Source: Escherichia coli (GTDB lineage Bacteria; Pseudomonadota; Gammaproteobacteria; Enterobacterales; Enterobacteriaceae). Taken from it: DNA of 64,000 nt. Positions 23,061 to 43,784 of the stretch are shown here, one piece after another. The position numbers were made by a program, and so were the translations under genes. The stretch is from NCBI RefSeq assembly GCF_013315695.1, contig NZ_CP054355.1, one strand, 5' to 3'. The notes beneath the pieces were generated by a model that saw only the letters and a program-made list of their open reading frames with translations, had not been told where the DNA came from and searched no databases. Each line of letters begins with the position of its first letter. The stretch's first letter is position 1.

Positions 23061-23567
23061 TCAAAACATGGCTGCCCGCCACAGACGTAACTTCATGCCC
23101 CAGTAGCTGGTCCAGCCGCTGGTCGTAGTTACCACCTGCCCCTTCGACACCACCACCAGCGTTGGCGTGACGCTGATTTCCCAGTTTCGTGATATCTCAC
23201 CGCCGCTATCATTCACGACGGGGAACGTCACCCTTTTACGCGATAACCAGCGGGAAACCTCCCCGTCATTACCGGAACGCAGCGCGATGGTCATGACGCT
23301 CTCCCCTTCCGACTGCAAACGGGCGACATCCGGCGTGGTGAAACGGCAGATACCGCACCAGCTCGCCCAGAAGTAGAGCAGCACCGGGCGTTCTTCACTG
23401 ATCGACGCCAGCGTTACGGTTTCCCCGTCCAGCGTATGCAGCGGCGTGCTGTCAAACATGGCCGGCATCTGCGGAGAACGCCAGACATCCAGCAGGATTA
23501 TCACGCCAGCCAGCAGAACCAGTAAGATCGCGCCTTCACGCAGCCAGCGGCGCAGTTTACTGAGCAT
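23061..23567 (-). CDS. scsD: ScsD-like membrane-anchored thioredoxin-like protein
   Basis: 168 aa, N-terminal TM, WASWCGICR CxxC motif. Confidence 0.65.
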   Translation of the reverse strand: MLSKLRRWLREGAILLVLLAGVIILLDVWRSPQMPAMFDSTPLHTLDGETVTLASISEERPVLLYFWASWCGICRFTTPDVARLQSEGESVMTIALRSGNDGEVSRWLSRKRVTFPVVNDSGGEISRNWEISVTPTLVVVSKGQVVTTTSGWTSYWGMKLRLWRAAMF

Positions 23568-23727
23568 GGGCCACCGCCAGTTTTTCTTTCACCACCGCCT
23601 CAAGGGTCTCCCACGATACCGCGCCGGGGATCATCTCGTCGCCAATGATGGTTGCCGGCGTCCCCTGAACGCCAACCAGCCGGGCGAGTTGCAGATTGGT
23701 GCTCAACGTCTCCATGCTTTTCTCATC
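23557..23727 (-). pseudogene. scsC: ScsC (DsbA-like) C-terminal fragment, truncated at IR copy B
   Basis: ..GVQGTPATIIGDEMIPGAVSWETLEAVVKEKL.. typical DsbA-like C-terminus; overlaps the scsD start. Confidence 0.5.
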
Positions 23728-23765
23728 GGGGTCAGTTTGGATATAGAGAATTATTGTACTATAAG
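23728..23765. repeat. Tn3-family-type 38-bp IR-like sequence (copy B)
   Basis: GGGGTCAGTTTGGATATAGAGAATTATTGTACTATAAG; same orientation as copy A. Confidence 0.5.
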
Positions 23766-24318
23766 GACTTCCCCGGCATGTCAACGCCGGTGTTTACGGT
23801 TTCTGTCTGCACTATAGTAAAAAAATAAAGGGGAGAGACTGCGGTACTATAAACGATCATGATGAATCGTCATCGATTCGGACCCTGATGAAAGACGCTC
23901 GTGAGGCTCTAGTTCGTTAGTCGGGTACACTTGCCCTGTACAATAAGCAGATATACCTCACGGGGTCTAACCCTTTATCATCAACGAGTTGCAGATCAGA
24001 TGGTCATACAGCTTTGTACTTTAGCTGGCTGAGTACAACCTGAAATCATCACCGTAATGCAATGATGCCCAGCACAGTCTTGCATTTTTGGCAGCGATGG
24101 CAACAACAGCGCGCCAGTATCCTCTGCGTTCGACCAGTGAGCAGACCCAACGACTGAATAAATCAGTCCTTTTCTCCGCCCCGATCAGTACCGAGCGGGC
24201 ACCCTGAACCAGAAGTGTTCTCAGATACGAATCGCCAGCTTTCGTTATCCTGCCAAGCTTCGACTTTCCGCCGCTGCTGTACTGCGATGGTGTCAGTCCC
24301 AGCCAGGCTGCCAGCTGG
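23766..24318 (-). mobile_element. IS110/IS1111-family element 3' fragment (transposase C-terminus at about 24021-24318), truncated by IS26
   Basis: ..LAAWLGLTPSQYSSGGKSKLGRITKAGDSYLRTLLVQGARSV.. is an IS110-family C-terminal signature. Confidence 0.5.
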
Positions 24319-24687
24319 GGCACTGTTGCAAAGTTAGCGATGAGGCAGCCTTTTGTCTTATTCAAAGGCCTTACATTTCAAAAACTCTGCTTACCAGGCG
24401 CATTTCGCCCAGGGGATCACCATAATAAAATGCTGAGGCCTGGCCTTTGCGTAGTGCACGCATCACCTCAATACCTTTGATGGTGGCGTAAGCCGTCTTC
24501 ATGGATTTAAATCCCAGCGTGGCGCCGATTATCCGTTTCAGTTTGCCATGATCGCATTCAATCACGTTGTTCCGGTACTTAATCTGTCGGTGTTCAACGT
24601 CAGACGGGCACCGGCCTTCGCGTTTGAGCAGAGCAAGCGCGCGACCATAGGCGGGCGCTTTATCCGTGTTGATGAATCGCGGGATCT
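24319..24687 (-). mobile_element. IS26 partial copy (right IR plus 3' end of tnpA26), interrupted by the Tn3-family transposon
   Basis: IR ggcactgttgcaaa at 24319; ORF ends ...KGQASAFYYGDPLGEMRLVSRVFEM as in IS26 Tnp; identity stops at 24687. Confidence 0.8.
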
Positions 24688-24720
24688 GGGCTCCGTTTGG
24701 GAAACGGAAAATATTGTACG

Positions 24721-27708
24721 TTAAGGCTGTTTTTTGTACTGACTGACATCAACTGCTCGCAAAGGACGATACTTCCCTTCAGCCAGCTTCTTATTGTTTT
24801 TCCAGATATAGTCCCCTGTCAGATTAATGTGCTCCCAGCCCAGCGGAGACAAATGTGACAACAATTGCTCATTAATATGTAGCCCTTTCTTTTTCAGCAG
24901 GTTAATGGCGTTTTCTATATATACGGTATTCCACAAAGTGATTGCGGCAGTGAGCAGCGTAAGCCCACTGGCGCGGTAACTCTGGTTTTCAATACCACGA
25001 TCCCTTATTTCTCCCAGACGATGCATGAAGACAGCTCTGGCAAGGGCATTCCGGGCTTCCCCTTTGTTCAGACCTGCCTGAACCCTACGACGAAGCGCCG
25101 GATCGCGGAACCAGTCCAGCATGAACAGTGTTCGCTCAATACGACCAATTTCTCTTAACGCCTTAGCAAGGCCATTCTGTTTCGGATAACTGGTCAATTT
25201 TTTCAGCATCAGAGAAGCGGTCACTGTTCCCTGTTTTATTGAGGTCGCCAGTCTCAGAATTTCATTCCAGTGTATTTTTATCTCTTTGATATTCAGGGGG
25301 GTTGTGGAGATAATTGACTGTAGAGCAGGATAGTTATCAGCTTTACCTTGAATAAACAAACGTTTGTCATGCAGATCCCGGATCCTTGGGGCAAAAGCGA
25401 ATCCCAGCAGATGCATTAGTGCAAAAACATGCTCCGTGAAACCTGCTGTATCGGTGTAATGTTCCGTTATATCAAGGTCACTTTCGTGATACAGAAGACC
25501 ATCAAGTACGTGGGTGGAATCACGAACACGACTGATTACTTTGGTATAAAACGGACTATATTGATCTGAGATATGCGTATAAAACTGCACCCCAGGTTCC
25601 TGACCGTACTTCAAATTAACCTGACCGGCATAGCGCCCATGACTGCCAACCCTAAAATTCTGGCCGTCAGAGGATGAGGTGGAACCGTCTCCCCATAATG
25701 CCGCCAGCGGTCGTGACTTCTGGGCATTAACCAGTTCTGCCAGTGCAGCAGAGTACGTTTCATCACGGATGTACCATGCTTGTATGTTTTCCAGCGAAGC
25801 TCGTGTGGTTCCCGGACAGGACTCTGCCATTTTTTCCAACCCTAGATTGATGCCGTCCGCCAGGATAGTGGTTAGTAGTAAACGATTATCCTGAGGACGG
25901 ATTAGCGGATTCTTAAGATGAGTAAAATGTCGCGAGAAGGCAGTCCATCGCTCGACTTCATCAAGTATCTCTGTAATTTTGGGGTGCGGTAGCATGTTGT
26001 AAATCAGGTCGGCCAGGGGAGAGACTGTTGAAGGAACGCTGTTATCCAGTGGGGTGATCTTTACACCTTTATCTGAAATATCCACATCAGGAAGCTCCCC
26101 TGCGACAGCCATTGCGTTAACTTCCTCCAGACGGGAGGCCAGTAGAGTCAGTCTGGCATTAAGATAAGCCCCGCATTCTGTGCCAACAGGTAAATTTAAT
26201 AGGTTATTATTTAATAACTTTTCGAAATCATCGTTAGGCATAAGATAATCATCAAAGTTTTTGTAGCGCCGGGAGCCCCTGACCCAGATATCACCCGCCC
26301 GCAGCGCCCCCTTTAGCTCATTCATTGCGCAAATTTCATAGTATTGTCGGTCAATGCCTGAGGGGGTGACCACCATCTTTCTCCAGCTCTCAGGAATGAA
26401 ATCCAGTGGTGCCGATGCAGGAACCTTTCGTAGCTGTTTACGGTACATATCACGAATAGTTTCAAGGGCATCATTAAGCGGCAACGCTGCCGAAGTGGCT
26501 CTCAGTTGCAGGGCCGATAGAAAACGAAAAGAATATTTGCGCAATGTACTGAATTTTTCGGTAATAAGATGAAGCGGCTCAAAATTATCCTTACGTGCAA
26601 GAAGCTTTGTTTCCTCCAGACTGGCGACAAAATCGTCCCACGGTAACACTCGTTCAATAGCAGACAGAGGATCTTCGCCTGCATTGCGTGCATCCAGGAT
26701 AGCCTGGCCAACAGAAACATACTGACGTAACTTTTGCTGTATCAACTTGCCCGTTTTCTGAAGACGCTCAGCCTGCTGATGTTTTGCCCGACTGAACATG
26801 CTGCCTAGAATACGTTCATGCAGTTCTATAATTTCATCAATGATTGTGGCTCTGGCCTCAGTCAGTACACAGACCATCGTTGCGTATCGACGAGCAGGGG
26901 AAAAATCAGCCAGATCGCGACTGCTCATTTTGCGGCCCTCACGCGCGAGTTTCAGCAATCGGTTCTGGTGAACGGTTCTCTCCACTCCTTCCGGCAGCGC
27001 CAGAGCTTCAATAGCGTTAAGGCGGTCAATGTGTTGCAGGACATTCTTTCCATTGATTTTCCCTGGAGGTTGAAGCAGCCACGTCAAACGGGATATTTGT
27101 TTTTCATTTGTCACCAACAGGGCATCAAGCGCAGATTTATGCGTGATATCAAGGTGCGCATTCAGCGTTGTATACACCGTTTTATCACCCAGTGTCATTG
27201 CTTCTGCACAGGTACGTTCCAGAACATCAATGCCTGGAATAATAATTCGCTGTTGATGCAGGTACTTTAGTAACTCCTCTGCGATAAGTATGCCTCTGTC
27301 CGTTCTGGTAGACAGAGGGAGCAGATGCCGGATACATTCTTTCTGAAGTGCACCGTTAAAGGCTTTCAGTTCAAGATATCGATAAAGTTCCCTCATATGC
27401 TCACGTCTGGTGGTATCACGACCGGAAACGTATTCCTGCCAAAGTTCTGCTGATAACTTAAGTCGAGCGCCAATGGTTTTTAGCAATTTTGCGGGTGGGG
27501 ATGATTTTTTATCCGGGGCAAACCCAATACTTTTCAGATAACAGAGAAGAACGGCAAAACCAAACCGGCTGGCAGGTTTACGGTGAGCATTGATAATTGC
27601 CAGATCCTGCTCACTGAAATACGTCATTCGAGTCAGTGTTAACTCATCGTCTGGCAATGCCAGTAATGATTCTCTTTCCGATAGAGAAAGAATCTGCCTC
27701 CTTGCCAT
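24721..27708 (-). CDS. tnpA: Tn3-family transposase TnpA
   Basis: 995 aa; stop codon lies inside the terminal IR as in Tn3-family elements. Confidence 0.8.
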   Translation of the reverse strand: MARRQILSLSERESLLALPDDELTLTRMTYFSEQDLAIINAHRKPASRFGFAVLLCYLKSIGFAPDKKSSPPAKLLKTIGARLKLSAELWQEYVSGRDTTRREHMRELYRYLELKAFNGALQKECIRHLLPLSTRTDRGILIAEELLKYLHQQRIIIPGIDVLERTCAEAMTLGDKTVYTTLNAHLDITHKSALDALLVTNEKQISRLTWLLQPPGKINGKNVLQHIDRLNAIEALALPEGVERTVHQNRLLKLAREGRKMSSRDLADFSPARRYATMVCVLTEARATIIDEIIELHERILGSMFSRAKHQQAERLQKTGKLIQQKLRQYVSVGQAILDARNAGEDPLSAIERVLPWDDFVASLEETKLLARKDNFEPLHLITEKFSTLRKYSFRFLSALQLRATSAALPLNDALETIRDMYRKQLRKVPASAPLDFIPESWRKMVVTPSGIDRQYYEICAMNELKGALRAGDIWVRGSRRYKNFDDYLMPNDDFEKLLNNNLLNLPVGTECGAYLNARLTLLASRLEEVNAMAVAGELPDVDISDKGVKITPLDNSVPSTVSPLADLIYNMLPHPKITEILDEVERWTAFSRHFTHLKNPLIRPQDNRLLLTTILADGINLGLEKMAESCPGTTRASLENIQAWYIRDETYSAALAELVNAQKSRPLAALWGDGSTSSSDGQNFRVGSHGRYAGQVNLKYGQEPGVQFYTHISDQYSPFYTKVISRVRDSTHVLDGLLYHESDLDITEHYTDTAGFTEHVFALMHLLGFAFAPRIRDLHDKRLFIQGKADNYPALQSIISTTPLNIKEIKIHWNEILRLATSIKQGTVTASLMLKKLTSYPKQNGLAKALREIGRIERTLFMLDWFRDPALRRRVQAGLNKGEARNALARAVFMHRLGEIRDRGIENQSYRASGLTLLTAAITLWNTVYIENAINLLKKKGLHINEQLLSHLSPLGWEHINLTGDYIWKNNKKLAEGKYRPLRAVDVSQYKKQP

Positions 27709-27874
27709 ATAGTTATCCTTGTTAATTATTTAGTACGTTATTTTTGATGAAAAGGTTATTGCATAAGGGTACACCCTGATGCGAGATATAAAATGTGACC
27801 TCATACAAATAATGACATAACCTATATGCGATAGAATATATGCAACAACCTAAATGCGACAATGCGGTGAAAAA
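27709..27874. promoter_or_regulatory. res site / divergent promoter region between tnpA and tnpR
   Basis: AT-rich intergenic region with repeated atgcga-containing subsites. Confidence 0.5.
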
Positions 27875-28516
27875 ATGTTCATCAGAGCTTATTTAAGGGC
27901 GTCAACAGAAGATCAGTTTGCAGATCGAGCAAAAGAGATGCTGGAACAGTTCGTCCAAGAACGGGGGCATAAAATTGCCAGTTATTATCGGGAGAACATA
28001 AGCGGTACAAAACTTGACCGTCCGGAACTGAAACGCTTACTGATGGACAGTCACCGTAATGATATTTTGCTGGTCGAGCAGATAGACCGCCTGACCCGAC
28101 TGAGTAACAGCGACTGGATAACGCTGAAAAAGCAGATAGAACAACACGAACTGCGGATTGTCAGTCTGGATGTTCCAACATCATGGCAAGCCCTGTCAGA
28201 TAAAGATCCTTCACAATCAGATCCGATTACCCGCGCAGTGATAACTGCAATAAATAATATGCTTATAGACCTGATGGCCGCGATGTCGCATAAGGACTGG
28301 CTGAGTCGTCGCCAACGCCAAAAACAGGGAATTGAACGAGCTCATACGTTGGGTAAATACCGGGGAAAACAGGCCGATCAGGAACGTCATCAGAAAGTGT
28401 TGTACTACAGACAAGTAAAAAAACTCAGCATTAGAGAAACAGCAGATGCAACGGGCTACAGCACTTCGCAGGTTTGTCGCATTCAGGCTCTCTATAAAGA
28501 GGTTAAACCTGATTAA
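27875..28516 (+). CDS. tnpR: serine recombinase (resolvase TnpR-like)
   Basis: MFIRAYLRASTEDQ N-terminal serine-recombinase motif. Confidence 0.7.
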   Translation: MFIRAYLRASTEDQFADRAKEMLEQFVQERGHKIASYYRENISGTKLDRPELKRLLMDSHRNDILLVEQIDRLTRLSNSDWITLKKQIEQHELRIVSLDVPTSWQALSDKDPSQSDPITRAVITAINNMLIDLMAAMSHKDWLSRRQRQKQGIERAHTLGKYRGKQADQERHQKVLYYRQVKKLSIRETADATGYSTSQVCRIQALYKEVKPD

Positions 28517-28959
28517 AAAACAGCCTTAACGTACAATATTTTCCGTTTCCCAAACGGAGCCCTGCTAGCCTTTTCGTAATCATGCCATTGGAGATCATCT
28601 GGATTGATGTTAGGCATGACGTCTTGGCTGTAAAGCAAAAAATCAAGTGAGTCATCCATGATCTTCTCAAAACGCTTACTGCGGTTGTTTCTGTCACTAA
28701 TAGAGCCCGCCTGATACCACCTTTCCGACAACTGCCGATATCGAAGGAAGTGCTCATCCTCTTTCAGTTGATGAAACTGGTTCCTGATTTGTGCATCAAG
28801 CCGAATTGCCAGACCAGTAAAATCAGGTAACACAACCTTATGAGGGGCATTTTTGGGAGAAATCAGAGAAATGAATTCAGAAACCTGCATATCCTTGCTC
28901 TGAGGCCCGTAACGTTTATCAGAGCGGCGGGTGCCAATAAAAAAGCTTTCAATCGTCAT
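28513..28959 (-). CDS. hypothetical protein; 3' end replaced by Tn3-family IR sequence
   Basis: 148-aa ORF whose last ~16 codons are encoded within the transposon IR. Confidence 0.3.
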   Translation of the reverse strand: MTIESFFIGTRRSDKRYGPQSKDMQVSEFISLISPKNAPHKVVLPDFTGLAIRLDAQIRNQFHQLKEDEHFLRYRQLSERWYQAGSISDRNNRSKRFEKIMDDSLDFLLYSQDVMPNINPDDLQWHDYEKASRAPFGKRKILYVKAVF

Positions 28960-29006
28960 GATTTACCATATTAATCAGTATGTTACTCATTTATGTGTGT
29001 ATGAGG

Positions 29007-29171
29007 TTACATGTAGTACAGATGTAAAACCGGCGTAAGCCGGTGCGTTCGTCCGAAATAACCAATCCGTTCGTCCAGTTCAATGGCTGCTATCAGGTTC
29101 TGCTCCGCAATGTATTCACGAATGCGCTTCCTGTCCTGGCTGGCCAGCATGGTCCAGAATATCTCCATCAT
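29007..29171 (-). pseudogene. ParE/RelE-family toxin, truncated after about 37 residues (55-aa ORF)
   Basis: MMEIFWTMLASQDRKRIREYIAEQNLIAAIELDERI matches the ParE/RelE N-terminal helix pattern, then diverges and stops; 4-bp overlap with the upstream antitoxin. Confidence 0.45.
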
Positions 29172-29437
29172 TTACCGGCAACCTTCCTGCTCATTTCATC
29201 TCGCCATGCTGCAGCAGAGGATTCGACCATGTCATGGGGAAGTACATCGCCGTGCTCGAGTTGCTGACGTCCTGCCTCAACCTGGTCACGGAACCAGGTA
29301 TTATGCTGCCGTTCAACGGTCTGACGCATAAAATCCCGGATTAACTGAGAGCCATTACGGTCCATGCTTTTTGCAGCGGCCATAAAAGCATCCTTCAGTT
29401 CAGCGTCGATTCTTAAACTCATATTAACCTGTGCCAT
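29168..29437 (-). CDS. ribbon-helix-helix antitoxin (RelB/DinJ/ParD-like)
   Basis: N-terminal MSLRIDAELKDAF... RHH signature; translationally coupled to the toxin remnant. Confidence 0.55.
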   Translation of the reverse strand: MAQVNMSLRIDAELKDAFMAAAKSMDRNGSQLIRDFMRQTVERQHNTWFRDQVEAGRQQLEHGDVLPHDMVESSAAAWRDEMSRKVAGK

Positions 29438-29459
29438 TTATCACCTCGTCATTACTACG

Positions 29460-29476
29460 TATATACACAGTATATA
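29460..29476. promoter_or_regulatory. palindromic operator candidate upstream of the antitoxin
   Basis: Perfect palindrome tatatacACAgtatata 23 bp upstream of the antitoxin start. Confidence 0.4.
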
Positions 29477-29639
29477 ACGATTCAGACATCGTCACCAGGA
29501 TATGCCGCGTCAGCGGCATGGAAGGCGGCACGCTGTGGTTACATGTGATACCGGAGTAAAACCGCCGAAGCCCGGCGTCAGCCGATACTGATTGATAGAT
29601 TTCACCTTACCCATCCCCAGCCCTGCCAGACCATACCCG

Positions 29640-29880
29640 CTTTCAGCCATGAGAGAGCTTCTGTGCGCGGTCGGAGTGGTCCCGACGAGGGTTTACCCGA
29701 AGTCGGGGCGTATCTCCGCGTTAGCGGGCCGTGAGGGCCGCTTACGAGCGTGTACTGAGAACTTCCAGCGAGAAGACTGACAGCGATGATGATGTAGTTA
29801 CAACATTCATAATTAAAAGCGACTCTGTTCCGGCCCTTCGGGCCGGGGCGGGGCCGCTTTTCAGTTATGAGGGAGGGGCT
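29640..29880. other. structured non-coding element X, candidate single-strand initiation (G-site-type) priming signal downstream of oriR
   Basis: Several hairpins (ccggcccttcgggccgg); shares gtcccgac...ggccgtSagggccgcttacgagcKtgta with element Y at 60560-60730. Confidence 0.35.
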
Positions 29881-29999
29881 TTGTTGTTTCGGTTCTGCGC
29901 TGGACCGGGGTTTTCCTGGTGGTTGTATTTGAGTGTTGTAACTAAAATGGCTCCGGTCGGGGCCCGCCGCTTGCGGTGGGAGGTGCATATCTGTCTGTC

Positions 30000-30350
30000 C
30001 ACAGGACAGGCAATGAACAGGTTTTCTTTTTAAATGAATGTAATTAAGTAGTTTAAAGGAGATATAAACAGGTGTTTAAAAGATACATTGCACCCTGTAA
30101 CGCTGGCGGCTGGCGCTTTATGAGGTGAACGGTTGTAACCTTATCGGGAAGTCCCTTGCAGTTTAATGTGGATAAGCACAATTACCCGTCTGTGAGGCGT
30201 ATTTTGTATTAAAAACAGGGGGAACCGGATGCACCTGAAGGTGGATGGTGAGGTTATTTTTTGTATGTGGTGCTGATTTTTTGTGCACTGGCGGGCTTCA
30301 GGCGTGCGGAAGCCTCCGGCGCGTGCCGGATTATTCTGAGGAGGTCACTT
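30000..30350. other. IncFII origin region (oriR) downstream of repA1
   Basis: Position directly 3' of repA1; DnaA box tgtggataa at 30167-30175. Confidence 0.5.
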
Positions 30351-31208
30351 TCAGGGGGAAGCTGTAGCCAGCCGGCTGTAATTGCGGTTACGTGACAGAA
30401 TCATGCGCTCCTTCACACGACGCTCCACTTCGCGTTTTACCGTCTCACCATTAGCAGTAAAGCGCCCTTCCGAGATTTCACGCGTCAGCTGCCGTTTCAC
30501 CAGGGTGACGATATCCTGACGTTCCCTGTTCGCATCACGACGCGCACGGGCACGTTTTATTCCACGGGACTTAAGCTCTGTCTGGTAACTGCGGAAACGC
30601 TCACGCACAAAACGCCAGGCTTTCGCTATTAGTTCATCCATACCCAGGGTATCCAGCCCCTGTTTTTTGCGCTGTCTGTTTTCCCATTCAACACGACTGC
30701 GGCGCGCAGCTGCCACTGCATCCTCAGACACATCAAGGGCAGCAAACAGAGCCGGTGTGAACGTGATATCGGTCGGAATGTAGCACCCGATAAGCGGGTC
30801 ATATTCCGTCTGGTAGGTAATCAACCCCAGCTCTGACAGGAACGTCAGGGCACGGGTGGCACGAGTGATGGAGAGTTTTCCTGCACCGGACTCTGTCGCC
30901 AGTCCGCACTCAATGGCCAGCGTGGTGATGGAGCACTGGACGCGGTTGGCCAGCGGGTCATAGTGGAAACACAGCCCCTGCAGGAGCGCATCAATAGCCC
31001 GTCGACGCAGCACCGGTGGCATGCGTCGACGCAGACCACGCGAACGGGCATGCGCCACATGAATGGCGAAATCAAAACGGGAGGTGAAGCCCACCGCCTT
31101 TTCCATCAGTTTTTCGCAGAACTTCAGCGTTCCGGCACCTTTACGGGGTGTAAACACCGGATTCGGGTTCTTTACCTGGCGGTAATACGTTTGGTGAAGA
31201 TCAGTCAC
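30351..31208 (-). CDS. repA1: IncFII replication initiator RepA1
   Basis: 285 aa from a GTG start, [19 protein letters not shown]...RLATASP, as remembered for R100/R1 RepA1. Confidence 0.85.
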
Positions 31209-31295
31209 ACCATCCTGCACTTATGTTGCACAGAAGGAGTGAGCACAGAAAGAAGTCTTGAACTTTTCCGGGCATATAACTATACTCCCCGCATA

Positions 31296-31386
31296 GAGCA
31301 ACAGCTTCTATGCAGTTTCTTGTTAGCCCCGGTAATCTTTCCTACTCGCCAAAGTTGAAGAAGATTATCGGGGTTTTCGCTTTTCT
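31296..31386 (+). ncRNA. copA: CopA-like antisense RNA of the IncFII replicon (approximate)
   Basis: Plus-strand stem-loop ccccggtaatctt...aagattatcgggg followed by ttttcgctttt, between repA2 and repA1. Confidence 0.45.
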
Positions 31387-31519
31387 GGCTCCTGTAAATC
31401 CACATCAGAACCAGTTCCCTGCCACCTTACGGCGTGGCCAGCCACAAAATTCCTTAAACGATCAGCAATCTATCACGCACACCAGAAACAGGCAAGAATG
31501 TGATGTCGCTACATTTTAG

Positions 31520-31768
31520 TTAGCTAAAAGCACTCTTCTGCTTTATCAGTTCGGCAATCATCTCAGCCTGGGTAACGCCCTCAGCTTCACACATCACCTG
31601 CAATTGCGCTTTTAACGCAGCAGGAATGAACACTCTGAGTTCTTTATGTGTAGCTCGTTTTCTTGCCAGGGATGCCTGCTGACGTTCTGCAAGCGTCAGA
31701 GGATTACCTTTTCTGTATGCTCGCTTTGTACCTGATGAGGAAGTCACTGCATTTTCTGTCTGCGACAT
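31520..31768 (-). CDS. repA2: IncFII copy-number repressor RepA2/CopB
   Basis: 82-aa basic protein immediately upstream of the copA/repA1 region. Confidence 0.75.
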
Positions 31769-31934
31769 CTCGCCTCCTCAATACTCAAACAGGGATCGTT
31801 TCGCAGAGGATACTACAGTTTTTTGAAATCAGCGACTTGAGAATTGTGACGAAGATCTGTGTTGGCGCACAAATCAACGGGGATTACTGTCGTTTAATGT
31901 GATTTAAACTGTGAAATAGTATGGTTTTCAGTTA

Positions 31935-32015
31935 TGGAAACGCCGGGAGCGGGGAAAACTTGCTTTTTCCCGTTTCCGGGGTTGGACAACTGAGCAACGC
32001 GAAGGCGTCAGCTAC
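31935..32015. repeat. ~80-bp repeated element, copy 1 (upstream of repA2)
   Basis: ggaaacgccgggag...ccggggttggacaacTgagcaacgcgaAggcgtcagc; second copy at 44645-44745. Confidence 0.55.
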
Positions 32016-32598
32016 GATGTTCCGGGGACTGCTGATCAGCCCCTGTTGTATTCAGCCATTCTCCGGTCATCTGCAGCAGTTTTCTGGCATCGTGGCTTCT
32101 GAGCAACGGAATACCAGCCTGCCTCAGAACCTCTTCCAGAAGAATATCCCGGCGTCTGCGTTCCGGTCGTAAATGGCTGGCATCATCCAGCTCTACTGCT
32201 GCAACAATACTGAACGAACGCCGCTCAACGATAACCACATCAACATGCCACTGAGACACCATCCTGAATAACTGCCACCACTGGCGTGATCGTGGCCGGA
32301 TATTCCCGTTCAGCTGGACGATATCCGCGACCCGTACCTGCGGACACAGATACCACCGCTTCATATCCACAATTCTGAACAGTCCTTTCATAAAACTGAC
32401 TTCCCTTTCTGTCAGCAGCGTCTTCTGACGTTGCCAGTATTCACCGCCGGACAGTATTCGCTCTGCATCACCGGTCCGTATACCTGCCGCATGCAACTGC
32501 ATCAGCAAAGGAGAATGCTGATTTACACTTCTGAGGATAATCCGGATAAGTAACGCTGCAATAATCAGAACAATGAGAATAAAAATAATCAGCTTCAT
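32008..32598 (-). CDS. membrane-anchored protein (DUF2726/NERD-like), unknown function
   Basis: 196 aa, N-terminal TM helix; domain assignment from memory only. Confidence 0.4.
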   Translation of the reverse strand: MKLIIFILIVLIIAALLIRIILRSVNQHSPLLMQLHAAGIRTGDAERILSGGEYWQRQKTLLTEREVSFMKGLFRIVDMKRWYLCPQVRVADIVQLNGNIRPRSRQWWQLFRMVSQWHVDVVIVERRSFSIVAAVELDDASHLRPERRRRDILLEEVLRQAGIPLLRSHDARKLLQMTGEWLNTTGADQQSPEHRS

Positions 32599-32635
32599 TG
32601 TTTATCTGCTCCTGGTAATTAATTATTCTGAATTA

Positions 32636-32845
32636 TTACCTTACATATTTCCATATCTCTTTTGGTATCCTGTCATATAACTTTCCGGTGATTAATTCCG
32701 CTAACCGGTGGTCTGCTGCTGAATTAAATGATTCACGTTCACTGGTTGATAAACTGTCTCTGTTTTTATGAATAATTTTTTCCAGCGTATTGACTGATGA
32801 ACATCGCCGTAACTGATACAGCCATTCCTGTTTTGTTTTTGCCAT
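32636..32845 (-). CDS. hha: Hha/YmoA-family modulator
   Basis: ..YQLRRCSSVNTLEKIIHKNRDSLS...FNSAADHRLAELITGKLYDRIPKEIWKYVR aligns with Hha. Confidence 0.7.
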   Translation of the reverse strand: MAKTKQEWLYQLRRCSSVNTLEKIIHKNRDSLSTSERESFNSAADHRLAELITGKLYDRIPKEIWKYVR

Positions 32846-32890
32846 TTTTATTCCCGCTGAGAACAGATGAATGATAAGATTGCCAGCGCT

Positions 32891-33352
32891 TTATTTACGG
32901 TGTCTCCATATCCAGGGGGGAACCGGATCAGCATCTGACCAGAGCCCACGTTTTTGTTGTCTGGCTTCGTTCTGAAAGACAGGCAGCACGGGATCTGTGT
33001 TGTACTGCTCATATACCCAGGCAGCCCCGGCCCGGACCATAAACTGATTAACATTCATTCCGTCTGGTGCATAAACCTGCCCGAGAATACGGCCATAACG
33101 ATCTCGCTGAAAATATGTGACGGTAACCGTTTTTCCTGCAACCAGTGATTTCATCATGTCCGTTGACCACCGGCCATAATCCTGTTTCTTTTCCGGTGCA
33201 TCAATATTTACCAGCCTGATCCGCACCGCCTTCCGTGAGTCCATGACCTCGATGGTATCACCGTCCAGTACACGAACAACCCGTCCATGAATATCTGCAG
33301 ACAATACCGGCCATGAAAAGATAAATAATACCAGTGGAATATATTTCATCAT
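32891..33352 (-). CDS. secreted thermonuclease-family (SNase-like) nuclease
   Basis: Signal peptide then ..LVNIDAPE.. and ..YGRxL.. staphylococcal-nuclease-like motifs. Confidence 0.6.
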   Translation of the reverse strand: MMKYIPLVLFIFSWPVLSADIHGRVVRVLDGDTIEVMDSRKAVRIRLVNIDAPEKKQDYGRWSTDMMKSLVAGKTVTVTYFQRDRYGRILGQVYAPDGMNVNQFMVRAGAAWVYEQYNTDPVLPVFQNEARQQKRGLWSDADPVPPWIWRHRK

Positions 33353-33596
33353 GTTATTCTCCATATCAGATAAATGGCACCTGTATTTCAGGCATCCTGA
33401 ACATTGCAGCACACAATGAATAACACCTTGTTTTGTGAAATAAATCACAAAATATAAAATCTCGACTTAATACGGAAAAAACTCTGTGCTACTCAGAACT
33501 GTACGGTCATACTGCCCGACCGGATATTAAAAAAAGCAAATCTCATGCATTATTCAGCCTTCTGAATCCCTGGAGTAATGAAGGCTGCTTTTTTCG

Positions 33597-33818
33597 TTAC
33601 ACCCTTCCCCGGCTGCGCCGGTGGCAGTGTTCAGCCCTTTTTCGGGCAAACTGCTGCCAGTCTGTCCGGGGCGCAACACCGGCAGCCCGTCGCCATGCTT
33701 CTGCCGCTTCCATCCAGCGTCCACTGACCTCCAGAATAACGGCCCGGCTTCCGGCACGCTGCCAGCGCCAGACCTGACCGTTCCGTGAACTGTTTCTGAA
33801 TCCATTCATCTTTATCAC
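33597..33818 (-). CDS. small Arg/Trp-rich hypothetical protein
   Basis: 73-aa ORF; weak support. Confidence 0.2.
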   Translation of the reverse strand: MIKMNGFRNSSRNGQVWRWQRAGSRAVILEVSGRWMEAAEAWRRAAGVAPRTDWQQFARKRAEHCHRRSRGRV

Positions 33819-33911
33819 TCCTCTTTAACCCGTCAGTATTATGGTGTTAAATAATCTACTGAATTGGCTTCCTTTCGGGTACGGAAGTTATTTCCTTTTA
33901 AGCCTTATTTC

Positions 33912-33942
33912 CCTGCCTCCTCTCTGATGGAGGCTTTTTTTT
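33912..33942 (+). terminator. Rho-independent terminator (plus strand) abutting the finO 3' end
   Basis: gcctcctctctgatggaggc hairpin followed by T8. Confidence 0.55.
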
Positions 33943-34501
33943 ATTTCTCATCAAGCACGGCCTGAAGTTCTGCCTTTATCCGGTTCTGGCGGCGGATTTT
34001 ATCCAGACGCGCTGCCGCATACGCTTCCTCCTCCTGAGAAATATGCTCCGTCACATACCCTTCCGTGTCATACCGGCAGGCACCGGCTTTCATGGCACAC
34101 AGATAGCTTTCTGAACGGGTGATGGCCTTCAGCGCCCTGCGCAGTTTTTTATGCGAGAGCGGGATATTCCGCTGCGCCACGTCTTCCAGTAACACGTCCC
34201 GGATACCGCAGGCCAGAAGTCGGGGTGTGTCACCGTCAAATAATCCCGGCCACCAGGGTTTCAGGGTGTTCACGGCCTCATCCAGCGAGGGCAGGTTCAG
34301 ATAAATGGACAGCGCCTGTCTGGCCTGCGCTTTTTTTGCTGTCAGCTCTGCTTCCCGGGCAGCCTTCTCCGCCAGTTTCTGCTTTTTCACCTTCCATTTT
34401 GGTGGCGTGGTGACATTGATGATGGTTTTCCGGCTCCGGGTCGGTGTTTCCCCTTCCGTTTTCCGTTTCAGTGTCAGTACCGGTCGTTTCTGCTCTGTCA
34501 T
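33941..34501 (-). CDS. finO: fertility inhibition protein FinO (intact)
   Basis: 186 aa, [25 protein letters not shown]... Confidence 0.85.
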
Positions 34502-34603
34502 GATTGCCCTGACCTTTGTGAAAATATGTCCTCCAGGTCGTTGAAACTACTCACTATGATATTAAGCTGACCTCAACGACCTCTGACATATTAATACCGA
34601 CAA

Positions 34604-35464
34604 TTAAAGATGTTTTTTAAACCATTGCGTCTGTACTGCCGCCACACGTTCAAAAAACGCGCCTTCATAAATATCATAATGGCATGCGTCAGCTTCCTCG
34701 TATAATTCCTTAGTACCAGAAGCAACAGCATCATATAAGGCTTTTCCCTGTTCTGGTGGATTAACACTATCCTGGCCGGCAATAACAATCAAAACTGGGC
34801 ACTGTACTTTGGCTGCGCTCTCTGCCGGTTTATATTGCAACGTCTCCATAACCGTAAGGAAAGGTATTTTTATATCCATTTCAGGATACTGACCTTTTAC
34901 CTTCTCGAAGAATACCTTTGATTCATTATCACTCAGTACCCGGGTAACCCCCACAAACATCTCTTTCCCGGTGTTTTTCTTCTTCTCTGCCATTTTATTC
35001 AGCGTGGACAGAAAAGACGCTCTCTCCGATTCATTCATCTCTCCGGTAACCAGAACATCACCGTCAGCAAAAGCCAGCTGGCTGACAATACATTTTACGC
35101 GTTGGTCCTGCGCAGCTGCACTGAAGACATGCCCCCCTCCCAGCGATGTTCCCCATAACCCAATACGCTGATTATCAATACATTCCTGCTTTTCTGCCCA
35201 ATTGATAACTGAAATAATATCTTCGGTCTGCATTGCAGGAACCAGACGCCCTCGTTCTCCATCACTCTCACCGAATCCTCGATAATCAAAAGTAATCGTT
35301 GCGAATCCTGCTTCTGTAAAGGCATTCGCAAAGCAAGGGAGCAGAACATTCCTGATACCGCAAAACCCATGGCATAAGATAATCAAAGGATGTTTTATAT
35401 TTCCTTCAGGAACACGAAATGTCAGGGCAATACCTTCAGAGAGTTTGTGATCCGTAATTTTCAT
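34604..35464 (-). CDS. alpha/beta-hydrolase fold protein
   Basis: GxSxG nucleophile elbow (GTSLGG), HG oxyanion motif; between traX and finO. Confidence 0.6.
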   Translation of the reverse strand: MKITDHKLSEGIALTFRVPEGNIKHPLIILCHGFCGIRNVLLPCFANAFTEAGFATITFDYRGFGESDGERGRLVPAMQTEDIISVINWAEKQECIDNQRIGLWGTSLGGGHVFSAAAQDQRVKCIVSQLAFADGDVLVTGEMNESERASFLSTLNKMAEKKKNTGKEMFVGVTRVLSDNESKVFFEKVKGQYPEMDIKIPFLTVMETLQYKPAESAAKVQCPVLIVIAGQDSVNPPEQGKALYDAVASGTKELYEEADACHYDIYEGAFFERVAAVQTQWFKKHL

Positions 35465-35522
35465 AAATATCCTGTGTTATGTTGTTTATTAATAATCAGA
35501 ATCAGCGTCAGTATCATACCAG

Positions 35523-36269
35523 TCACAACGCCAGAACGCCCAGCACAGCCAGATGACAGGCGTAGAATACCGGGAAAAAATCCCCGGGCCAGAAACGGGG
35601 TAATGATTTTCCTGCACACGACACCAGACCAACGGTCAGCACCGTCATTACAAGACCGGCCACCGCCGCTGCATCACTGGAGGCAAGGTTAAGTGCCGGA
35701 ATAACGGCCAGCAGGCATGCAAGCAGCGCCAGACGTTCCGCTCTGTCTTCCGCCCGGTACAGTCGGTAACTGACCGCCAGCATCAGCAGCCCGGCAATGC
35801 CGTAACTGGTGCCGGACAAAGGCCCCCACAGGGCCATCAGAAGAATGGCCGCTGCTGTACGCCACCCACTGCGCGTTTCACACCACGTCAGCACCTGTGC
35901 CGCCACTGCAAAGGCAAACAGGATATTCCCCTCATACCAGGGAAAGCCGGCCAGATAATATGCGAACTGGGCAATAATTCCCCATCCCCACAGCCGGTTA
36001 ATGGCCGGTTGCCGGATATGCGCATGACGGGACAGATTCAGCCCCCACACCAGGGCAAACAGCGGAAAGGCTCCTCGCCCGGCCAGAAACATCCATTCCT
36101 GCTTCAGCTGGAATATCAGATTGATGTGGTCCAGTACCATCAGCACCAGCGCCACCGTTTTGATGATATCCCGCTGTCCGGGTGACCAGACCAGAAACGA
36201 CTGCAACCAGGTATCGGTCCGTGCAGCCAGTGAATCGTTACGTGTCGTGTTCGTGTTATCCGTTGTCAT
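35523..36269 (-). CDS. traX: F-pilin acetylase TraX
   Basis: 248 aa from MTTDNTNTTRNDSLAARTDTWLQ...; the longer listed ORF is an upstream extension overlapping traI. Confidence 0.8.
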   Translation of the reverse strand: MTTDNTNTTRNDSLAARTDTWLQSFLVWSPGQRDIIKTVALVLMVLDHINLIFQLKQEWMFLAGRGAFPLFALVWGLNLSRHAHIRQPAINRLWGWGIIAQFAYYLAGFPWYEGNILFAFAVAAQVLTWCETRSGWRTAAAILLMALWGPLSGTSYGIAGLLMLAVSYRLYRAEDRAERLALLACLLAVIPALNLASSDAAAVAGLVMTVLTVGLVSCAGKSLPRFWPGDFFPVFYACHLAVLGVLAL

Positions 36270-36288
36270 CAGTGTTTGTCTTCCTGTA

Positions 36289-39200
36289 TCAGTCTCCGCC
36301 CAGGGTTTTCTCTTTCTGCAGGTCACGAACCATATCCCGCTCCATCTGCTGCAGACGCTCCTGCAGCAGATTTTCCCGGGCAACCTCCCGGACCGCTTCC
36401 CGCTCCCGTTGTGATTCACGCAGCACACTCTCCGGCAGTGCGGTTTCCCGTTCAGATATGGCAGACCGGTCACGCTCCTGTCCGGCAATATCCCTGACAG
36501 CCAGCTCTGTTTTGCCATCCGGCAGGTCAGGTTTGTTCTCTGCCATTTTCCTGACAATTTCATCTGCGCGGCGTTCCGTTTCACGGCGGATGGCCTCTTC
36601 AGCCTGCCGCTGTGCCAGTACCTCTGCCGTGACCGGTTCGCCATTTCCGGCCCCCGGCTGGACGCTGTTATCCGGGATATCCCCCCACACGCGGCCACCG
36701 GTGATGGCACCGGGATTCCACGGACGACCTTCACCGGCAATTCTCACCACCACACCGCTGTCAGGATTATCACGGGCAATCCGGACGCCATCCTGCATAT
36801 TATCAGCCAGCAGGCTCTCTCCGTTACGGCTGCCCTGCAGGGCCACGAACTGCGCATCCCCGCTGCCTTTCACCCGTCCTTCACCACTGAATCCCCGCAG
36901 CCCGTTTCCGTCATCCGTGGTCAGTGGGTTCAGCCAGATACCAGCTGACTTGCCGTTACGGTCAAACGCCGGCAGTGCCACATACGGCTGCGGATATTTA
37001 CGTCCCGGTGCAATAAACCGTGCAGGGCTGTCTCCCCCGGCCAGCCCTGCCTGACGGAGAACGGCACGGCCTGCCGCCACGTCCCGCAGTTCCCGTGCCG
37101 TACTGAACAGCCGCTGCGCATTCATGACCTCCCGGTCCGGTTTCGGCTCCAGCACATCGTGGGCAGTTCCTTTCTGTACGGCATTGTTAATGGCATCCGT
37201 CCAGCCCTGACGGTTATCGGTGTACACCTGCACATGCTGCTTCATACGCGACAGGGCCACGTAGGCTGACTCAAAGCCGGCCATCAGTTTCCGGTTACCT
37301 TCCGTGCCTTCAAGCGCGATGGCAAAGGTTTCACTCGCCCCCTGCGCACCGTGGGCGGTGATGGCATAAGCCAGGTCAATATGTTGCTCTGCCCGCTCCT
37401 GGCCGGGGCGAATCACCCGGGTCTGCTGTCCGTCTGACAGCGTGACACTGTCACCGGAAACCGCTGTCACCGTCCAGACGCTGTTGGCCACATAACCGCG
37501 CTCCCGGTCACTCTTCGTGAAGCGCATCCGGTCGCCGGTCCCCACCCGGATTTTGTCCGGGGTGTACAGTGTGACACCTTCAGCCACCGCCTCCCGGGGC
37601 GAAATCAGCCGCGTGTTACCTTCCGCATCCTCCAGGGTTATCAGCCCGTCATCCTTGCTGATACCGGCAATCCGGTGATACACACTATCCACCAGGGCAA
37701 GGGCATCCGGGTTATTCTCCCAGGTGGAGAGACGACGCAGCTCCCCGTCACGTATATTCGCTGTGTTCAGGACAGGCACCATGACCTGCTCTTTCCCCAG
37801 CTCACCGGCCTTTTCCCGTGCATCATGAATCATGCTGTTCAGTACGCGCCGGTCCTCATTCAGGTGCGTGACAATCAGCGTCTGCTCCCGTGCTTCCGGT
37901 GTCCTGCCGGTATAGTCGCGGACAATGGCTTCATACAGTGTCATGGGGACATCCGGAAAAGTCTCACCTTTCAGCATCGCCTTCTGCTGCGCTTCTGCCA
38001 GTTTCGCTTCCTGGCTGTGACTGAACTCCGTCACGGAGTGCTCCGGTGCCCATGCGCCCTCCTGACGGGGAACCTGAGACGGTTTCACACTCTCAAGCCC
38101 GGACAGTGCCCTTTCCACATCCCGGTTAATCAGGCTGTATACCGCCTCCCGCAGTTCCGGCGTCTGACGCACAATCTCCTTCATGATGACCACATCGGCA
38201 GCACTGCGCGTCTGCTGGAGACGGAAAGGCTGACCGGGCGCGATGGCCTGCAGCTGGTCCGTGTCACCACTGGCCACGGCACGACCGCCACCGGCCGCAA
38301 TCAGGGCGTATGCCCGTGCCATGTCGGTATTGCCCACCATTGAGCTCTCATCGAGCAGGAACAGCGTGTTGCTGAAATCCGGCGTTTCTCCGCTGCGCTG
38401 CTGCAGCTGCGTGTCATGCAGAAAGGACGCCAGCGTCTGTGCATCCACGCCGGCGCTGCGCATCTCACCGACCGCACGGTGCGTGGGCCCCAGCCCCACA
38501 ACTCGGGGACGCTCACTCGCCGGCAGCATGTTCACGGCTGACATCACCGCCCGGAACTGTGTGGTCTTACCCACACCGGCATAACCCTGTACCACCGTGA
38601 AACGGTCGGACGTTTCCAGTATCATACGGGTGGCGGCACGCTGTCCCGACGTTAACGTCTCCATGAGTTCGCCGGGTACTCTCTCCATCAGCGGCGTGAC
38701 CGCCTCCTTACCTTCGAGAATATGGCGAAGAATACTTTTTTCTGCCTCATACGACGCACGGGAAACCAGCAGGCCTGTGCCATAGCCTTTTGCCACATCC
38801 ACATACAGTAAGTCACCGCGTTTTATCTGCGCATTGATTTCCCCTCCCAGTTCAGTAAAACCGGTTCCTTCTGCAGCAAACGACTTCGCCTCTGTCAGCA
38901 GGTCCACCATGCTGAAGGCCAGGTTTTTACTTTCCAGCACAGGAAGGGCCAGATGAATGGCCTGCTGTGCCGGCGTGTGCAGCCCGGTTTTCTGCAGACT
39001 GATAGCGGTTTCCAGCGATGTCTCACCGGCCCGCGCCTTTATCTGCTCAGAAACCACCGTAAAGGAGGGATGGCGGGCAAGTTTTTCCGCAGTACGGGTT
39101 TCATCCAGTGAGGAATACAGCCGGACATCACGACCGCTGCGGGCCAGACCGTTCAGGGTGGCGTTGTCCATTGCCATCTGTGTGACGGAGGCAAACACCG

Positions 39201-41559: not shown

Positions 41560-43784
41560 CAGAAATCATCTCCCGGCTCAACATCCTCCCCACGCTCCCG
41601 GTGCACATTAATGTTCACCTCTTCACGACGCTGCATCTGCTGCTGGATGTCCGGATGATTTTCCTGTTGCCATGCCTCATAAGCGGCCATATCCACCACT
41701 TCACCGGATTCACTGATCCCGGGTGGCAGTTGCTGTTCCATCTCTTCTTCCGGTTTCATTTTCAGCTCCTGCTCGATCCCCCCTGCCGGAACACTCACAC
41801 CTGCATCTGACTTCTTATCATTGATGACAGAAGACACTGGCTGTTGTGGCTGTTGTGGCTGTTGTGGCTGTTGTGGCTGTTGTGGCTGTTGTGGCTGTTG
41901 TGGCTGTTGTGGCTGTTGTGGCTGTTGTGGCTGTTCAGCCTGAGTCACATCTTCTCCGGAGGCAACCTCCGGTTCAAAGAGGCTGGCCATCTGACGACCT
42001 TCTGCTTCCCTTGCGGCAAGTACGGCACTCAGACGGTTCTCCATTTCCGGGTTGATGTCACGCGGAATAAACTCCGGAGCGACCTTCGGTCGTGCCTGAT
42101 ATTTCAGAGAGAGTTTGACTGCCGGATACGGTCCGGGCAGAGTGACATAGCAGGTCAGATCCGGCAGAGACTGAATGTCGGAATAACTGACCAGCGTCTG
42201 ACGCTCCATATCCTTACCGGTCGATACCCCGTCACGTACCGGGTCAGCACCGTAGGAATACTGCTCGCTGGCTTTCAGGTGCTCTTTCTCACCAATCTCA
42301 CCGGCAGCGAACTCTGCAATCTTATGGCTCGGGGAACGGAAAAAAGCACGGGTGTTCATGACGTCAAACAGCGTGGCCGCCGCTTTCTCACCGTAGATAT
42401 CTTCCAGCTGGGCATAGGACTGGATACCAAACACATAACAGCCACCGAACTTACGGGCTTCCGGCAGGATCTCCACCAGGTCCGGCAGTTTGTGTAACGT
42501 GGGTAACTCGTCACAGAAAAACCACACACGACGGTTACGGTTTTCTCCCATTGCCAGCAGACCACGAATGGCAATGGACAGCCACATGGAGATCACCGGC
42601 TTCAGGGAGGCATGGGTGTCGGCGTTCGACGAAATAAACAGCCAGCCGTTTTTCTGATCTTCCCGGACACCACGCATCCAGTCACGGATGGTAAAAGACT
42701 CACCGTTATGCTCAATCCCCTGCAGGTAACGGATGGCTTTCACGTAGTTGGTCAGCACAGCACGGATGGAAATCGCCGTTTTCTCAATTTTCTCTTCCAC
42801 CAGGTTGGCTGCCGGTGAATTACGCAGGAAGGTACGCAGTTTTTCAATTTTGATGGAAAGCAGTGTGTCCACCAGTTTGCTGTAGCTGCGGTTGGGGTCA
42901 TTACGCATCAGGTACGCCGCTTCCGCAAAAATGGTACGTCCTGAACCCTGCCAGAACGGGTCCTCTTTTGTACCCATAGGGATCAGAGTATTTGCGGTAT
43001 TATCAAAATCCGGCTGTGTCAGGCACTCCTTCCACAAATCCCATGCGGCACAGCGGGCATCCAGCGGATTCAGGATTTTATCGATGGAGGGATCATAGTA
43101 ACTTTTAACAAATTCCCCTGAACGGTCATAAATCACCACCATATCACCGCGCTGACGGGCATAGTTGGCCAGACGACGGATAACCTCCGACTTACCGGCC
43201 CCGACCGTGCCGTGCAGACAGAAGTTCTGGATTTCGGAATCCCGGATAATCGGCAGGTCGCCAATCCGGATATCGGAGTCCTTGCCGTCTTTTTTCAGCA
43301 TCCGGGCCACTTCTTTCGGGTTATCCGTCAGCTGACGCCCGCCGGTCACCTCATTTTCACTCTGCTGTTTCCCCTGATGCCCCAGAATCCAGGAGACAAC
43401 AAAGAAGGTGATCAGGCAAATAACCAGGGCCACGACAGACGCCAGAACGAATGCAGACCATAGCTGCTCTCCGCACCAGATCATATATTTATCATGCAGT
43501 ACCTGGGCAGCGTTCATCCGGAAGGTTTTGCCGTAATACTGGATCTCATAGACCGGCTGGGATTTTATTAAATCCCGCATGCCTTCCAGTGACGTACACC
43601 ACCAGTAAATACAGCCGTTGATAAACGTCTGCCAGCTTATTTTTACCCATAAGACCAGACCAATGAGGATCCAGAAAAAAATAAACAGGCAGTAAAGCAT
43701 GATATTGGCGATCTGGCTGAACATGCGGATACGCATGGACGCAATCTGACCGCCCTGGGTCATATCCTTTGCGTTAAAACTCAT
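41559..43784 (-). CDS. traD: type IV coupling protein TraD
   Basis: 741 aa, N-terminal TMs, Walker [10 protein letters not shown]-terminal (QQP)10 repeat. Confidence 0.9.
41841..41930. repeat. perfect 9-bp tandem repeat x10 (ctgttgtgg) encoding the (QQP)n tract of TraD
   Basis: Counted directly in sequence. Confidence 0.9.

Follow-up and report, generated by a model that had tools for sequence, protein, structure and literature searches.

Background

A terminal repeat of 38 bp is typical of transposons of the Tn3 family. A cryptic member of this family, Tn5403, resides on Klebsiella plasmids, carries no passenger genes, generates 5-bp duplications, is often cut by or adjoins IS26 and provides a site of homologous crossover from one plasmid to another (PMC5142620). 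Mismatched 5-bp flanks have been described for Tn4401 in pKPC-727 and in a plasmid of K. pneumoniae S9, where a second round of replicative transposition was invoked to account for them (PMC4471558). Another relative is TnEc1, known from the PGAP product name 'Tn3-like element TnEc1 family transposase' (e.g. on E. coli O55:H7 plasmids).

The stretch of Escherichia coli DNA that we analysed, a window of 64 kb, holds an intact Tn3-family transposon of 3,875 bp (3.9 kb) at 24688-28562. It is an already catalogued, unnamed element encoding the proteins WP_024221657.1 and WP_024221658.1, and it is cryptic and passenger-free, containing a transposase, a resolvase and terminal repeats only. It can be likened to Tn5403 in its lack of passengers, its 5-bp duplications, its association with IS26 and its proposed part in crossovers between plasmids (PMC5142620); the one plasmid with a reported Tn5403-family remnant, which is not a full reference copy, had no meaningful nucleotide similarity to it. 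TnEc1 likewise consists of tnpA and a recombinase gene, is of similar size and shares the plasmid habitat, but TnEc1-labelled copies match at about 80-82% nucleotide identity over about 35% of a 7-kb query, and PGAP does not give the name TnEc1 to near-identical copies of the window element. At that level of identity we rejected TnEc1 as the same element and regard it as a relative. The label of Klebsiella elements at 87.7% identity goes no further than 'Tn3 family'. Whereas the Tn4401 cases show two copies in inverted orientation, as the outcome of an inversion, the window has a single copy with flanks that are collinear with relatives. Judged by sequence identity, this copy sits exactly at the seam of two F-plasmid lineages, which is new in this analysis.

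Results

The transposon carries a 995-aa Tn3-family DDE transposase gene, tnpA (24721-27708, minus strand), with an intact reading frame, whose product matches DDE_Tnp_Tn3 in Pfam at 1e-147, together with DUF4158, and transpos_Tn3 in NCBIfam at 1146 bits (cutoff 500), bearing out the original prediction of a Tn3-family transposon. Divergently oriented to it lies tnpR (27875-28516, plus strand), encoding a 213-aa serine recombinase (resolvase) with a Resolvase N-terminal domain (Pfam, 3e-21) and a C-terminal helix-turn-helix; the protein scores below every NCBIfam equivalog cutoff. Translated from the annotated start TnpR is identical to WP_024221658.1, while the longest open reading frame starts at 27854 and would give 220 aa; TnpA differs from WP_024221657.1 by two amino acids. 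The AT-rich spacer between both genes (27709-27874) is presumed, from its position only, to contain the res site for cointegrate resolution and the promoter region. The 38-bp repeat GGGCTCCGTTTGGGAAACGGAAAATATTGTACGTTAAG occurs exactly twice in the window, at 24688-24725 (plus) and 28525-28562 (minus), with zero copies expected by chance. The 38-bp inverted repeat of the original prediction is thus an exact pair, although it forms only the core of perfect complementarity over 48 bp, from 24688-24735 (plus, tnpA side) to 28515-28562 (minus, tnpR side). Its inner motif, ACGTTAAG, presumably resembles the Tn3 repeat. The element had been predicted to extend to 28567; it ends at 28562, the remaining 5 bases being flanking DNA. 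A Tn3-type DDE transposase of about 1000 aa, inverted repeats of about 38 bp and, at other copies, 5-bp duplications all mark it as a Tn3-family transposon.

In RefSeq E. coli the element is known from the 2013C-3033 chromosome (in the lsrK/lsrR interval), plasmid NZ_CP027324.1 and plasmids p1 and p2 of strain 21319. These copies match that of the window in length (3,875 bp) and are identical to it in repeats, gene order and tnpR, with differences at 3-4 positions overall. Three SNPs are private to the window copy, and two of them alter TnpA, at residues 625 and 839; as all three lie in tnpA, their pattern is uninformative as a sign of a hybrid element. Strains with the element carry 2-3 copies on different replicons.

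To the left, the transposon borders an IS26 stub (24319-24687, minus strand), which comprises the last 369 of 820 bp, with one 14-bp terminal repeat (GGCACTGTTGCAAA, whose single match in the window is at 24319) and the 3' end of tnp26, a gene annotated on the minus strand in relatives, in the orientation of the stub. All 369 bases are identical to the IS26 of NZ_CP027554.1 and of pCE10A. A complete IS26 runs on as ...GATCT|GCCAC, and since the G at 24688 is common to IS26 and the transposon repeat, the left junction is ambiguous by 1 bp; with this proviso, IS26 identity ends at the repeat tip as had been claimed. Compared to a complete IS26, with its 820 bp, two 14-bp repeats and intact tnp26, the stub is a fragment and not a functional copy: the N-terminus of the transposase and the second end are both missing, so it is unable to move on its own. 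The other half of IS26 was correctly said to be absent from the far side, as no other IS26 sequence exists in the 64-kb window. The outer end of IS26 cuts a remnant of an IS110-family transposase gene (24021-24318, minus strand; Pfam Transposase_20, E=2e-16). The same junction is present in pCE10A and pEBM1, where a partial transposase is annotated beside a complete IS26, and it is older than the transposon junction to its right.

On the right, the transposon borders what is left of a hypothetical plasmid gene of 924 nt encoding WP_001415483.1: its 5' 397 nt, or 132 codons, are present (28563-28959, minus strand), and its 3' part is missing. NZ_CP027554.1, NZ_CP044149.1 and NZ_CP021733.1 carry this gene intact, and its truncated product matched no Pfam or NCBIfam family. 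The truncated gene announced at 28513-28959 proved to be this fragment followed by 16 codons inside the transposon repeat, up to a stop at 28513 (minus strand).

The bases abutting the transposon are GATCT (24683-24687) on the left and TGCTA (28563-28567) on the right, both junctions being flush with the repeat tips, and a reading of the 12 bases spanning each junction revealed no common 5-mer. At the same tips, three independent copies elsewhere, which differ from the window copy at 3-4 of 3,875 bases, carry the perfect 5-bp duplications TAATA, TATAC and AATAC. These duplications identify the tips as the real cleavage points, fixing the boundaries and making the window copy exceptional. The mismatch of the two flanks and the lack of a duplication, both part of the original prediction, therefore stand, and we rejected the idea that shifted boundaries could yield a duplication. 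Unlike those three, the copy on NZ_CP027324.1, from another strain, also is without a duplication.

The DNA on both sides of the transposon differs in its affinities. The 24.2 kb to its left (451-24688) is 99.8% identical to pCE10A-type plasmids. In pCE10A and its relatives, exactly the site of the stub is occupied by a complete IS26, after which comes the repA that belongs to these plasmids. To its right, a 5.4-kb patch with the IncFII replicon (28563-34000) is of NZ_CP027554.1 type; its left edge is the transposon and its right edge lies at approximately 33.9-34.0 kb. It contains the truncated gene, a truncated yacB, yacA, the IncFII repA/tap/copB genes, a DUF2726 gene, hha and a nuclease gene. 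From 28563 to about 34000 there are two mismatches to NZ_CP027554.1, compared to 22 in the next 500 bp, and identity to pCE10A is only 94-96.5%. DNA of pCE10A type returns at about 34 kb, with 99.55-99.95% identity over 33925-36590 and 56540-64000.

To look for parental molecules, we built both reciprocal junctions synthetically, one joining the repeat, GATCT and the remainder of IS26, the other joining the 3' part of the gene, TGCTA and the repeat. Neither was covered by any record among 5,426 complete E. coli genomes, and the window's own junctions were absent from PLSDB, RefSeq E. coli, metagenome contigs and GTDB genome contigs. A chimeric query of the left flank, a complete IS26 and a blaTEM flank, used to search PLSDB for a deletion ancestor, retrieved just the analogous plasmids pC32_1 and p_dm655_NDM5, with different DNA beyond IS26. 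The pCE10A-type left module was not found within 18 kb of the intact gene in NZ_CP021733.1. Plasmid p1 of strain 21319 appeared to have a common right flank; the homologous segment actually lies on the other side of its transposon.

Discussion

As both junctions lie exactly at the repeat tips, we are confident that each was made by the transposase and that a secondary rearrangement came on top of this. For the route to the mismatched flanks, we infer an exchange between plasmids with the transposon as one of the crossover points, a reading to which we give an even chance and which we place a little ahead of a simple adjacent deletion within a single molecule. One transposition would have hit the target GATCT inside the IS26 of a pCE10A-type F plasmid and a different one the target TGCTA inside the hypothetical gene of an NZ_CP027554.1-type F plasmid, after which exchange between the plasmids would have brought these two half-sites around a single transposon copy. 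The left crossover would be the transposon itself, either by recombination of two copies (homologous or by resolvase at res) or by a cointegrate of replicative transposition that was later trimmed by homologous recombination, and the right crossover would lie at about 34 kb, where the two plasmids share F backbone near finO. As a net result, 5.4 kb from the replicon region of the other plasmid, but not its resistance region, would have taken the place of the resident IncFII replicon region along with the 5' 451 bp of IS26, and the surviving copy would have no 5-bp duplication.

Exchange between two plasmids that each carry a copy would explain the mismatched flanks and the mosaic together, and since a single process would account for the hybrid flanks as well as for the replaced patch, fewer events are needed. 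Copies on different replicons within one strain, as noted above, are a substrate for such exchange, and recombination between plasmids at copies of a cryptic Tn3-family transposon has been documented for Tn5403 (PMC5142620). Several points argue against this route. Neither a parental insertion nor either window junction turned up in the collections named above. The resolvase is apparently intact, so a cointegrate is expected to resolve fast and not to last until a backbone crossover. The mosaic could also be older than the transposon, IS26 being a frequent crossover point that has the right place and orientation in both parental types. As claimed, IS26 is interrupted at the repeat tip, in line with the claim that the transposon entered it; as to the order, which that claim took for granted, a first insertion in the gene with the IS26 junction made second is equally possible.

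The original prediction of an insertion followed by an adjacent deletion or replicative rearrangement was right in that a secondary event is required; a deletion on a single molecule is not established, the transposon lying at a lineage border. In such a deletion, a transposon residing in IS26 (or in the gene) would have undergone intramolecular replicative transposition into the other site, whereupon the intervening DNA would leave as a circle with the second copy and the remaining copy would have one old and one new flank. The 5' part of IS26, probably a resistance region of the blaTEM/sul2/strAB type, an HTH gene and the 3' 527 nt of the truncated gene would have been lost. We consider this route somewhat doubtful. 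It requires junctions flush with the repeat tips, as seen, and intramolecular events of Tn4401 that leave no adjacent duplication have been documented (PMC4471558). The presence of IS26 around such regions is also well in line with it: in plasmids of NZ_CP027554.1 type, blaTEM-1, sul2 and strAB separate the gene from an identically oriented IS26 that lies 6.6 kb beyond it, NZ_CP021733.1 has several IS26 copies beyond the gene, and in pC32_1 and p_dm655_NDM5, which are pCE10A-type relatives, IS26 borders a resistance region at the exact position. The collinearity of both flanks with relatives fits a deletion over an inversion; the inversion model was rejected on this ground and because no inverted second copy, nor any other sequence of the element, is present in the 64-kb window. 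However, a deletion needs a prior hybrid of both plasmid types; none was found, and PLSDB has no record in which an NZ_CP027554.1-type replicon is linked to the left module, IS26 and the blaTEM flank. It is further disfavoured by the transposition immunity of Tn3-family elements, established for molecules that already carry the element (PMC4471558), and it takes one event more than exchange between plasmids, the two routes being only that one step apart.

An assembly artefact, in which flanks of different copies were joined in a host with several 3.9-kb repeats and two related F plasmids, with a switch back in the common backbone, is highly improbable. Other strains with the element do have 2-3 copies on different replicons, the combination of junctions is unique across all collections searched, and the transposon and the conserved backbone at about 34 kb are places where assemblers could be confused, but the assembler would have had to switch wrongly twice, independently, within just 5.4 kb (not counting the transposon), and the molecule forms a coherent F plasmid that has a single IncFII replicon. 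Mismatched flanks are also seen in a finished RefSeq plasmid, and so count as biologically normal for the element. Equally little can be said for a transposase-independent deletion (illegitimate or IS26-mediated) beside a normally inserted transposon: adjacent deletions by IS26 are common in these plasmids (PMC4471558, PMC5142620), but they start at an IS26 end, whereas IS26 is here broken internally at base 369/370, for which reason an IS26-mediated deletion was rejected, and that a random endpoint should fall precisely on the outermost base of the repeat, with the duplicated 5 bp gone and the element untouched, would be a one-in-many coincidence.

Conclusions

The phenomenon described here is an ordinary, well-understood plasmid rearrangement, with no new element or mechanism. 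For annotation, it teaches that mismatched 5-bp flanks around a Tn3-family copy point to a recombination seam, and that the DNA on either side should be checked for different ancestry. For the history of the plasmid, it bears on where and how an F virulence plasmid gained a different IncFII replicon segment, with an IS26 copy inactivated in the process and a resistance region possibly lost or excluded. We tentatively propose, at somewhat less than even confidence, that the passenger-free transposon acted as a portable crossover or fusion point for a replicon swap, by which a pCE10A-type virulence plasmid (characterized by senB, cjr and iron uptake) took the IncFII replicon of a multiresistance F lineage, while the resident IS26 was destroyed and the resistance region of the donor was left behind. 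If true, it would be a cryptic transposon, and not IS26, that drove this switching of replicon, and hence of incompatibility type.

Structure of the transposon and its junctions

Direct reading of window 23200-29400 confirmed that, as the original prediction had observed, a Tn3-family transposon adjoins an interrupted IS26, with the unequal flanking pentamers GATCT and TGCTA and a truncated gene on its far side. The transposon is a passenger-free element of 3,875 bp (24688-28562) whose terminal repeat GGGCTCCGTTTGGGAAACGGAAAATATTGTACGTTAAG starts at 24688 and recurs as an inverted copy at 28525-28562, the only other match when up to three mismatches are allowed. Zero such repeats are expected in shuffled sequence, and the inverted repeat is perfect over 48 bp. 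The element encodes a 995-amino-acid transposase, TnpA, on the minus strand (Pfam DDE_Tnp_Tn3, 1e-147; NCBIfam transpos_Tn3, 1146 bits with a cutoff of 500) and, divergently from it, a serine recombinase with Resolvase and helix-turn-helix domains.

To the left, 24319-24687 matches the IS26 of pCE10A and NZ_CP027554.1 at 369 of 369 bases, and the 64-kb window contains a single copy of the IS26 terminal repeat, GGCACTGTTGCAAA, at 24319. This stub is the IS26 end with the 3' part of tnp26, a gene lying on the minus strand in relatives with the same IS26 orientation, and thus retains one end only and no functional transposase. Uninterrupted IS26 reads ...GATCT followed by GCCACTTC across the break; since the G at 24688 is common to IS26 and the transposon, the junction is uncertain by one base. 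The outer IS26 end severs an IS110-family transposase gene remnant (24021-24318), a junction identical in pCE10A and pEBM1; in p6-Pyelo_1, IS26 directly adjoins 23761 and 23762-24318 is missing.

To the right, the minus-strand ORF at 28513-28959 consists of the first 132 of the 307 codons of a hypothetical gene (WP_001415483.1), followed by 16 codons from the transposon repeat. The gene is whole in at least 55 PLSDB plasmids spanning window 28563-29500, about a dozen of which are 100% identical, and the uninterrupted target in these plasmids reads ...CCCTTAC followed by TGCTAGCC. The yacA antitoxin gene nearby is whole (29168-29437, minus strand) and the adjacent yacB toxin gene retains approximately its first 37 codons, diverging at about 29057; this truncation is also present in NZ_CP027554.1-type plasmids, leaving yacA as an orphan antitoxin.

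Other copies and related elements

RefSeq E. coli holds four further copies of the 3,875-bp element, each different at 3-4 positions. Three have matched flanks, namely those on the 2013C-3033 chromosome (between lsrK and lsrR; TATAC on both sides), on plasmid p1 of strain 21319 (TAATA) and, inside a DUF2726 gene, on plasmid p2 of the same strain (AATAC). These copies fix the repeat tips and identify a 5-bp duplication as the norm for this element, so the suggestion that a duplication might emerge from corrected boundaries does not hold. The fourth copy, on the 2013C-3033 plasmid NZ_CP027324.1, is flanked by CACTA on the left and TAATG on the right, which indicates that duplication loss is recurrent for the element; it is located between a truncated tnpA of a different Tn3-family element and a truncated IS91-family transposase gene. 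Compared with these four copies, the window copy has three private SNPs, all in tnpA (25194, 25835 and 26770), two of which alter TnpA residues (625, E versus A; 839, T versus A).

The element is already present in RefSeq under the generic names 'Tn3 family transposase' and 'recombinase family protein'. Among the relatives named by PGAP, TnEc1 is the nearest, with approximately 81% nucleotide identity. Copies in E. albertii are 94.8% and those in Klebsiella and Enterobacter about 88% identical to the window element; the ISPa38 and TnAs3 transposases share about 56% identity with TnpA. Its lifestyle resembles that of Tn5403, a cryptic transposon with 5-bp duplications that is entangled with IS26 and at which plasmids have crossed over with one another (PMC5142620). 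One sequence comparison found no relationship between the two.

Lineage composition of the plasmid

The window belongs to an F-type plasmid, which we compared with the complete sequences of pCE10A (NC_017647.1; A-type) and NZ_CP027554.1 (B-type). Along the window the lineage order is A, B, A. Window 451-24688 is 99.81% identical to A-type, with B-type matching over IS26 only (24318-24688), whereas from 28563 to about 34000 identity to A-type is 94.4-96.5%, and multiresistance plasmids of the NZ_CP027554.1 type differ from this 5.4-kb IncFII repA region by 2 mismatches. Between 34000 and 34500 there are 3 mismatches to A-type and 22 to B-type; window 33925-36590 is 99.55% identical to A-type, with B-type at 96.4% (35518-36810), and 56540-64000 is 99.95% identical to A-type and has no B-type match. 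The pCE10A-type parts (99.5-99.95%) comprise the senB/cjr/iron-uptake module and the FIB/ccd/parM side.

In the A-type plasmids pCE10A, pEBM1 and p6-Pyelo_1, a complete IS26 stands at exactly the same site, followed by their own repA, which identifies the window plasmid as an A-type plasmid carrying a 5.4-kb B-type patch. The patch has taken the place of the IncFII replicon region and of 451 bp from the 5' part of IS26. It is bounded on the left by the transposon and on the right by a homologous crossover, which falls close to finO and the gene for the ANR regulator (about 33.9-34.0 kb).

pCE10A contains several IS3-family copies that match window 9865-11175 (1.3 kb) at about 97%; it also has an additional IS3-family insertion, placed between its finO and ANR regulator genes (window 33774-33925), that is missing from the window. 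The tra region (36590-56540) is missing from pCE10A by deletion, and its identity is only 93-98% whether it is compared with the two reference types or with the pUTI89-like relatives examined.

Origin of the mismatched flanks

When a Tn3-family copy lacks adjacent duplications, this is an established sign of a secondary event, either replicative transposition or recombination (PMC4471558). In the window copy each junction coincides exactly with a repeat tip and so was made by the transposase, which acted on two different target sites. We give an even chance to an exchange between plasmids. An A-type plasmid would have carried the element within its IS26 and a B-type plasmid would have carried it within the hypothetical gene; the plasmids would have become joined either through recombination of the two copies or as a cointegrate formed by transposition, and a second crossover in backbone homology would then have left the B-type patch. 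This course explains the mosaic as well as the hybrid flanks and needs about three events.

A tentative alternative, to which we lend somewhat less credence, is that an earlier A/B hybrid carried IS26, a resistance region and the gene, and that insertion at one site was followed by replicative transposition into the other with loss of the interval. In B-type plasmids a correctly oriented IS26 does lie 6.6 kb past the gene, with blaTEM-1, sul2 and strAB in between, and A-type relatives with IS26 adjoining a resistance region are known; however, this course requires one event more than the exchange between plasmids and runs contrary to Tn3-family immunity (PMC4471558). Synthetic reciprocal junctions of 200 nt (repeat, GATCT and the rest of IS26; 3' part of the gene, TGCTA and repeat) had no match covering either junction among 5,426 complete E. 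coli genomes, and the window's own junctions were absent from PLSDB, RefSeq E. coli, contigs of metagenomes and GTDB genomes. An assembly artefact is very improbable, as are other explanations, and a random or IS26-mediated deletion does not fit because IS26 itself is broken internally.

The interpretation given in the original prediction is borne out in part: a secondary rearrangement took place, but it need not have been an adjacent deletion. Both the element and the phenomenon are known; what is new is the position of the transposon, at the seam where the replicon region of one F-plasmid lineage was replaced by that of another.
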